Of a DNA stretch of 4,282 bases, positions 1,679-1,879 are shown piece after piece. Both the position numbers and the translations under genes were made by a program. The stretch is taken from IMG/VR virus record IMGVR_UViG_2585427751_000006, positions 1 to 4,282 of that record. The stretch is one strand, 5' to 3'. The notes beneath the pieces are model-generated. The model was not told where the DNA came from. It did no database searches and saw only the letters and a program-made list of their open reading frames with translations. Source of the DNA: a virus (taxonomy: Duplodnaviria > Heunggongvirae > Uroviricota > Caudoviricetes). Position 1 is the stretch's first letter; each line of letters starts with the position of its first letter.

Positions 1679-1879
1679 ATGTATCGAAACATACGGTGCC
1701 GACACTGCAACAAGTTACTGGCACGGGCCAGTTTCAGTTATCTGGAAGTAAAATGTCCGCGCTGTAAAACCCTCAATCAAATCACATCTCCGAGCGCCAC
1801 AGAGCACCCCACATACACAAGGAAATCCTGTCGTGGGGAACAGAAAACAAGTTACATCCCGTATCATCAGCACGCCTGA
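1679..1879 (+). CDS. com: Com-like zinc-finger translational activator (phage Mu Com family), 66 aa
   Basis: ATG at 1679 with AGGAGG (1663-1668) 10 nt upstream. Protein [34 protein letters not shown]... has Cys at 7, 10, 26 and 29 (CxxC-N15-CxxC). It shares the IRC.xCNKLL / SF / CPRCK / EHPT pattern with Mu Com as I recall that sequence. Its 3' end overlaps the next ORF by 47 nt, as com overlaps mom in Mu. Confidence 0.8.
1807..1838 (+). promoter_or_regulatory. putative translation-inhibitory stem-loop sequestering the mom SD and GTG start codon
   Basis: CCCCAC (1807-1812) can pair with GTGGGG (1833-1838), and the latter includes the GTG start at 1833-1835. The enclosed loop carries the SD AAGGAAA (1820-1826), which can itself pair with TCCTGT (1826-1831) in a smaller hairpin. 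No folding energy was computed. Confidence 0.3.

Follow-up and report, generated by a model that had tools for sequence, protein, structure and literature searches.

We asked whether the com-mom module at the right end of an Escherichia coli Mu-like prophage retains the translational lock described for phage Mu, in which an RNA hairpin hides the start codon of mom and the Com protein, bound beside it, activates translation. In Mu, the GUG start of mom is held in the stem of a translation-inhibition structure (TIS) (PMC6483171), and Com, an RNA-binding protein, binds mom mRNA beside the TIS and activates mom translation, with binding proposed to melt the inhibitory structure (PMC6483171; PMC3378877). 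The recognition motif of Com is CC(N)2-3GAG, presented in a 6-nt hairpin loop with a closing C-G pair (PMC6483171; PMC3378877). The window, as we call the whole 4,282-nt stretch of DNA analysed here, had been described in an earlier note as carrying a comparable stem-loop over the mom initiation region, inside the overlap with com. We find that this interpretation is supported and that the structure is probably a Mu-type com-mom translational control element, and that the support is provided by positional homology with Mu and by comparative data rather than by statistics on the single sequence.

The window comprises the right end of the prophage fused to host DNA. Host homology extends from position 2699 onward, through yaeF and then proS on the minus strand, and positions 2699-3000 are matched by 5423 of 5426 complete E. 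coli genomes, while the prophage-host joint (about 2698/2699) is spanned by none of the 5426. The onset of yaeF homology at 2699 and the absence of any genome across the joint thus indicate that, in this strain, the prophage is inserted within the 3' portion of yaeF, as expected for random transposition. mom is the final prophage gene and ends 128 nt before the prophage end (about 2698), and the com-mom operon therefore has a right-end position in a Mu-like prophage. The com-mom module itself is found in 233 of the 5426 genomes, mostly at 95-99% identity. Several other features of this region were recorded in passing. The yaeF ORF (2588-3499, minus strand) runs into phage DNA. Three direct repeats, GTATCAAA(T/A)nAnnTGC, begin at 2617, 2652 and 2674 near the prophage end (within 2601-2689), and these GTATCAAA repeats are candidate transposase end-binding sites by analogy with Mu R1-R3. 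A 13-nt inverted repeat (2601-2613/2635-2647) is followed by a T-run and is a possible mom terminator. On the minus strand of 1066-1564, the overlapping ORFs 1066-1272 and 1265-1564 match a gene that is annotated as a pseudogene, frameshifted or partial, in related E. coli prophages.

Both genes of the module are intact. com (1679-1879, plus strand) encodes a 66-residue CCCC zinc-ribbon protein (Cys 7, 10, 26 and 29; Pfam PF10122, E = 2e-12) that is annotated by PGAP in an identical copy, and a Shine-Dalgarno (SD) sequence read directly from the DNA, GCAGGAGG, lies at 1661-1668 on the plus strand, 10 nt 5' of ATG 1679. mom (1833-2570, plus strand) encodes a 245-residue, full-length DNA adenine-modification enzyme of the Mom family that matches Pfam PF25680 over positions 1-202 of 202 (E = 2.4e-77) and is 79.5% identical to Mu Mom. 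Despite this high similarity of Mom, the window Com is just 44% identical to Mu Com. In the zinc-ribbon core, its identity is 59-62% to Coms that are linked with distant Moms and 50% to that of Mu; we considered a mosaic origin of com and rejected it, as the domain is too short and the identity differences are too small to conclude. In three of the loci (L001, L003 and L088), the PGAP annotation of com reads 'Com family DNA-binding transcriptional regulator', while the literature describes an RNA-binding translational activator. The mom frame opens at 1752, and the sole ATG, GTG or TTG that precedes the region aligned with Mu Mom is GTG 1833, the same GTG chosen by PGAP as the mom start in an identical E. 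coli copy. The claim that mom can start only at this codon is thus correct.

Folding of the transcript places this start codon in a hairpin. CCCCAC at 1807-1812 is a perfect 6-bp Watson-Crick complement of GTGGGG at 1833-1838, the latter consisting of the mom start GUG and a Gly codon GGG, and the stem formed by the two arms is present in both the minimum free energy (MFE) and centroid structures in 46-nt, 71-nt and 276-nt contexts. Each of the six outer pairs reaches a probability of 0.98-0.99 in an 81-nt ensemble. The enclosed 20-nt loop (1813-1832) contains the mom SD, AAGGA (1819-1823), 9 nt 5' of GTG 1833, as well as an inner helix in which the SD is itself paired (G1821-C1828 and G1822-C1827, probability 0.97), together with softer pairs, A1817-U1831, C1818-G1830 and A1819/A1820-U1829, at 0.3-0.6 in the same ensemble. 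These calculations agree with the earlier note on each structural point: GTG 1833 lies inside a CCCCAC/GTGGGG stem in every fold tried, and the proposed pairing of the SD with TCCTGT is essentially right, being strong for the SD GG with CC (0.97) and partial for the UGU at 1829-1831 (0.3-0.6). An alternative pairing of the start with the CCAC at 1797-1800, in what we identify below as the Com loop, has an ensemble probability of about 1e-4 and is not the ground state; it was rejected.

The earlier note did not mention a target for Com, and we find one directly 5' of the stem. The putative Com-binding hairpin GA-GCGC-CACAGA-GCAC (1792-1807, plus strand) is the positional homologue of GA-AUGC-CUGCGA-GCAU in Mu, and consists of the leading GA, a 5' arm GCGC (1794-1797), a loop CACAGA (1798-1803) and a 3' arm GCAC (1804-1807). 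It presents the known recognition motif (PMC6483171) as CC(N)3GAG, CCACAGAG, at 1797-1804, with the closing pair C1797-G1804. The hairpin abuts the 5' side of the TIS, and C1807 is common to the two helices, like the corresponding U in Mu. Three of its four pairs form, the fourth position being a C1795·A1806 mismatch that is kept in 42 sampled copies, all of which are identical throughout the hairpin element, and in two relatives (L113 and L114) that are 80% identical; two others (L106 and L216) have U at 1795 and hence a perfect stem. Thermodynamic folding favours an alternative 2-bp register for this small hairpin. When the Mu register is forced, it costs 4.1 kcal/mol and loses only the C1807-G1838 pair, and the TIS goes from -11.5 to -8.2 kcal/mol. 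Since the forced Com hairpin removes only a single TIS pair, simple competition between the two helices fails to explain full opening, as in Mu.

Alignment with the Mu reference (AF083977) reveals how closely the two regions correspond. CCCCAC/GUGGGG aligns column for column with the Mu TIS arms UCCCAC/GUGGGA, and the annotated mom GTG start and the ribosome-binding site GGAG of Mu fall at equivalent aligned places. The window shares with Mu the order of the genes, the overlap of com with the mom start, and the position of the operon as the last before the right end; the GUG in the 3' arm of the stem, an identical core CCCAC/GUGGG, and the SD in the loop; a Com hairpin that abuts the stem with one shared nucleotide and carries CC(N)3GAG with a C-G closing pair; and a GATC palindrome upstream. 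The differences are in detail. The TIS loop is 20 nt long in the window versus 11 nt in Mu, and adds the helix that pairs the SD GG with CC; the outermost TIS pair is C-G rather than U-A; and GCGC/GCAC, with a C·A mismatch, replaces AUGC/GCAU as the stem of the Com hairpin. By every feature open to computation, the element belongs to the Mu com-mom control family, with this mismatch as its one deviation. The proposal that the Mu-like logic of the start-site stem-loop is preserved despite sequence divergence is supported by the TIS alignment and the Com motif, and by the comparative loci described below. Homologous com-mom regions in Mu-like prophages, e.g., Sp18, have been noted earlier (PMC3299994).

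The upstream region is conserved in part. A perfect 9-bp palindrome, AATCGATCG-N7-CGATCGATT (1611-1635, plus strand), contains two GATC sites (1615-1618 and 1628-1631), and aligns with the GATC-rich region 5' of the Mu mom promoter, with two Mu GATC sites conserved. Dam and OxyR act at the Mu mom promoter (PMC3378877), and the palindrome may have a comparable function. A sigma-70 scan of the plus strand 5' of com returned no consensus promoter, which fits an activator-dependent late promoter. The GATC cluster is about 48 nt from the com ATG, compared to about 75 nt in Mu, and this spacing and the lack of a sigma-70 consensus together point to a promoter layout unlike that of Mu.

On the window sequence alone, the stem exceeds chance only weakly. 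Folding z-scores are -1.4 for 71 nt, -2.35 for 46 nt and -2.15 for 53 nt. The energy required to open positions -14 to +6 is 13.45 kcal/mol, compared to 5.3 ± 2.6 kcal/mol in shuffles of the whole sequence (p about 0.01); with shuffling confined to the upstream sequence, the null rises to 12.2 ± 1.8 kcal/mol (p about 0.22), and 46% of these upstream-only shuffles cover the start codon with a helix of 6 bp or more, counting G-U pairs. These statistics are weak because a C-rich upstream sequence faces the G-rich GUGGGG start. The experimentally proven hairpin of Mu performs no better by the same tests (z = -1.9, p = 0.21), and single-sequence statistics therefore cannot decide the matter; we relied instead on comparative evidence.

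The comparison covered about 230 loci encoding relatives of Mom, drawn from genomes, metagenomes, viral contigs and phage records. com was detected with a regular expression plus tblastn, the latter adding six Com genes, which were reclassified, where usable, before any statistics were computed. Of 80 species-level genome loci, about 50 have a com gene adjoining mom, and about 25 usable ones lack it. Occlusion of the start site goes with the presence of com in tests that ignore phylogeny and in which some start codons of distant loci were chosen by the analyst. The median energy required to open -14 to +6 is 16.0 kcal/mol at com-linked loci versus 7.8 kcal/mol at com-less loci (Mann-Whitney p = 6e-10, phylogeny ignored), the mean probability that the start is paired is 0.77 versus 0.52 (p = 1.5e-4, phylogeny ignored), and once GC content is regressed out, the effect of com is still +8.0 kcal/mol (permutation p = 2e-4, phylogeny ignored). 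Among moms that are at least 67% identical to that of the window, com-linked loci require 7.6-18.4 kcal/mol, while five of the seven com-less loci require 2.6-4.7 kcal/mol; the two exceptions (L009 and L004), at 11.2-13.1 kcal/mol, both have uncertain TTG starts.

The Com hairpin, too, is associated with com. A search upstream of the start for the pattern GA-N4-[C/U]N3GA-N4, with at least three of four pairs formed, finds a match in 29 of 45 com-linked mom loci and in none of 25 com-less ones; the pairing requirement introduces a small selection bias, as nearly all regular-expression matches satisfied it. Over 36 distinct sequences, 97.9% of cells are paired, compared to 81% in shuffles, and slid registers collapse. 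Three of the four pairs have changed on both sides, in 29 cells, a covariation score reached by 0 of 500 shuffles. The stems are diverse and include AUGC/GCAU, GCAC/GUGC, ACGC/GCGU and GCGC/GCGC, as well as AGGC/GCCU, GAGC/GCUU, AGAC/GUUU and UCGC/GCGG, while the loop invariably reads C-NNN-GA with a C-G closing pair.

The start-site stem was compared over 17 distinct Mu-like junctions. Each of its six pairs is formed in 100% of them; the outermost is U-A in ten, C-G in six and U·G in one, four pairs never vary, and one has a C-to-U change with a wobble kept. As few as one or two independent events may underlie the switch between U-A and C-G. The earlier note had proposed covariation analysis across homologous loci: covariation is strong in the Com hairpin, the outermost TIS pair switches, and the core CCCAC/GUGGG, being invariant among close relatives, gives no covariation signal. 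Both arms are coding sequence, com E-H-P-T and mom M-G, and the TIS positions that do vary are third codon positions, of His or Cys in com and of Gly in mom, which match each other with zero mismatches in 19 distinct junctions. Pro in the 5' arm is always encoded by CCC, although all four third bases would specify this residue. In distant loci, unrelated arms still pair the start, whether this is AUG, GUG or UUG, e.g., GGCCAUGG/CCAUGGCC, GGCCGUGG/CCGUGGCC, GCCAUGAGCU/AGCUUAUGGC and UCAAGA/UCUUGG. The inner helix has its own parallel in L113 and L114, which have another loop sequence, yet AGG pairs with CCU again. Metagenome and viral scans for further variants of the 20-nt loop of the window clade returned three only, L088, L113 and L114. 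A scan of the window against Rfam with permissive E-values found no family that covers the element; sub-threshold matches elsewhere in the window (rimP leader and Esr41) were rejected as chance.

How, then, might such a hairpin be opened, if it regulates mom at all? Hairpins that occlude a start codon and are opened by translation of the upstream gene are a well-known mechanism in phage operons, including those of the RNA coliphages, and they resemble the window in placing both start codon and SD in a local hairpin within the upstream reading frame. Ribosomes translating com could open the mom hairpin in this way, with Com playing no RNA-binding role at the locus. The geometry would permit it: ribosomes on the 3' part of com traverse both the Com hairpin and the entire mom start hairpin. 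The com frame extends 47 nt beyond the mom start, with its stop codon (1877-1879) 44 nt past the GUG, and in 39 of 42 com-linked loci com likewise continues beyond the start of mom, by 29-74 nt. As the whole explanation, however, such coupling is unlikely. Hairpins of the RNA coliphage type need no dedicated RNA-binding activator, whereas the window has a conserved, covarying protein-binding hairpin beside the stem, and this hairpin, with its invariant loop motif, would be without a role under pure coupling. The three loci in which com ends before the mom start keep the hairpin, two of them (L055 and L058) with a start-pairing probability of 1.0, and Com of Mu itself binds beside the TIS and activates mom translation (PMC6483171; PMC3378877). 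Coupling as a contributor, acting alongside Com, is a real possibility.

We give similarly little credence to the view that the stem is a by-product of overlapping coding (E-H-P-T in com and Met-Gly in mom) and of base composition, a relic with no regulatory role. Such a view would account for the near-equal occlusion of the start in upstream-only shuffles (12.2 versus 13.45 kcal/mol), for the helices of at least 6 bp in 46% of them, for the invariance of the TIS core among close relatives and for the C·A mismatch in the Com hairpin. It is disfavoured by synonymous third positions whose fixation or covariation preserves the pairing (Pro CCC, and the His/Cys-Gly match in 19 distinct junctions), by distant loci in which unrelated arms still pair the start, and by most com-less moms, which lack occlusion at similar GC content and protein sequence. 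The intact ORFs and the identity of the element in 42 sampled copies also speak against a relic. A stable hairpin within an operon could in principle act at another level, in RNase processing or RNA stability or as a transcriptional pause or attenuator within com; nothing specific favours this, and we regard it as very improbable. No U-run follows the stem, a terminator scan of the plus strand found nothing there, and every lineage keeps the element positioned over the start codon, however different its arm sequences.

We thus favour Com-dependent control of mom initiation, and infer that Com would bind the window RNA, that the stem would melt upon binding, and that translation of mom would depend on Com. 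In the com-mom mRNA, the mom ribosome-binding site would be closed by the hairpin, with the outer stem 1807-1812/1833-1838 containing the GUG and the inner helix tying up the GG of the SD, while the small hairpin at 1792-1807, sharing C1807, would display CC-ACA-GAG for Com. As Com (encoded at 1679-1879) accumulates, it would bind this small hairpin, remove C1807 from the inhibitory stem and further destabilise it, and the opened stem would then permit 30S initiation at GUG 1833. The hairpin is also traversed by ribosomes completing com, which may contribute to its opening.

The same arrangement is found in front of genes other than mom. In E. coli SW070917 (L088, 1900-2160; NZ_CM129862.1), the promoter-com-hairpin-GUG cassette is placed on a DNA cytosine methyltransferase gene rather than on mom, and keeps the upstream region, com, the Com hairpin, CCCCAC...GUGGGG and the first codons GTG GGG AAC, with the joint to the methyltransferase just 3' of the stem. 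The com-methyltransferase pair of phage Chuche (L169) also has CCCCAC...GUGGGG, and the com-linked methyltransferases of Chuche, B3, Mcat3 and E. coli SW070917 all combine a CC(N)2-3GAG motif with an occluded start. Known com-linked methyltransferase cassettes (FluMu hin1523, Pnm1 nma1821, Hia5, and phage B3 ORF47/48) likewise have a Com homologue directly 5' of a DNA-modification gene and differ in that the controlled gene is a methyltransferase, whereas that of the window is a true Mom. Possible Com sites have been reported at the 5' end of hin1523 and before methyltransferases that replace mom (PMC3299994). The cassette behaves as a portable module.

A second layout emerges from many Desulfovibrio, alphaproteobacterial and Pseudomonas loci, in which the Com hairpin contains, in its loop or 5' arm, a triplet that can pair with the start codon (about -40 to +6 relative to the mom start; L033, L034, L041, L052, L059, L005, L006 and L080), as in GA-AGGC-CAUGGA-GCCU ... 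CCAUGGCC. We tentatively raise the possibility, which we consider rather less likely than not to hold in full, that the Com and start-codon hairpins make up a portable, family-wide RNA switch with at least two designs and with the window clade as an intermediate or hybrid. Design A, that of Mu and the window, would consist of abutting hairpins with one shared nucleotide, and design B of an anti-start triplet within the loop or 5' arm of the Com hairpin; in design B, the Com hairpin and the inhibitory stem are mutually exclusive, which would provide a simple mechanism of activation. The window clade would be a hybrid in that its Com loop retains CCAC, complementary to the start GUGG, with an anti-SD helix added, and a 5' arm of the GCGC type joined to a 3' arm of the Mu type would give rise to the conserved C·A mismatch.

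A separate observation concerns five Sphingomonas loci (L077 at 1060-1100, L083, L084, L085 and L087) that have no com within 1.2 kb of mom. Each has a Com-site-like CC-NNN-GAGCAUC/GAGCGUC just 5' of ATGGAGTC, and GGCUCC/GGAGUC complementarity around the start. These sites may reflect a com elsewhere in the genome, or may be a chance resemblance.

Phage DNA that carries the Mom modification resists many restriction enzymes, yet the modification is toxic if made early, and control of mom therefore matters for the biology of the prophage. In this widespread E. coli Mu-like prophage, the com-mom module looks intact and very probably keeps the Com-dependent translational lock of Mu. Since Com-mom control was already known and possible Com sites before methyltransferases had been noted, the window is a further copy of a known mechanism, and the result at this locus is mainly good annotation. 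Moderately new are the covarying Com hairpin across Proteobacteria, its two layouts, its portability to methyltransferases and its lack of an Rfam model, and the element would merit description as an RNA family. A Com target that tolerates many stem sequences may help RNA biologists and users of Com/com aptamers.
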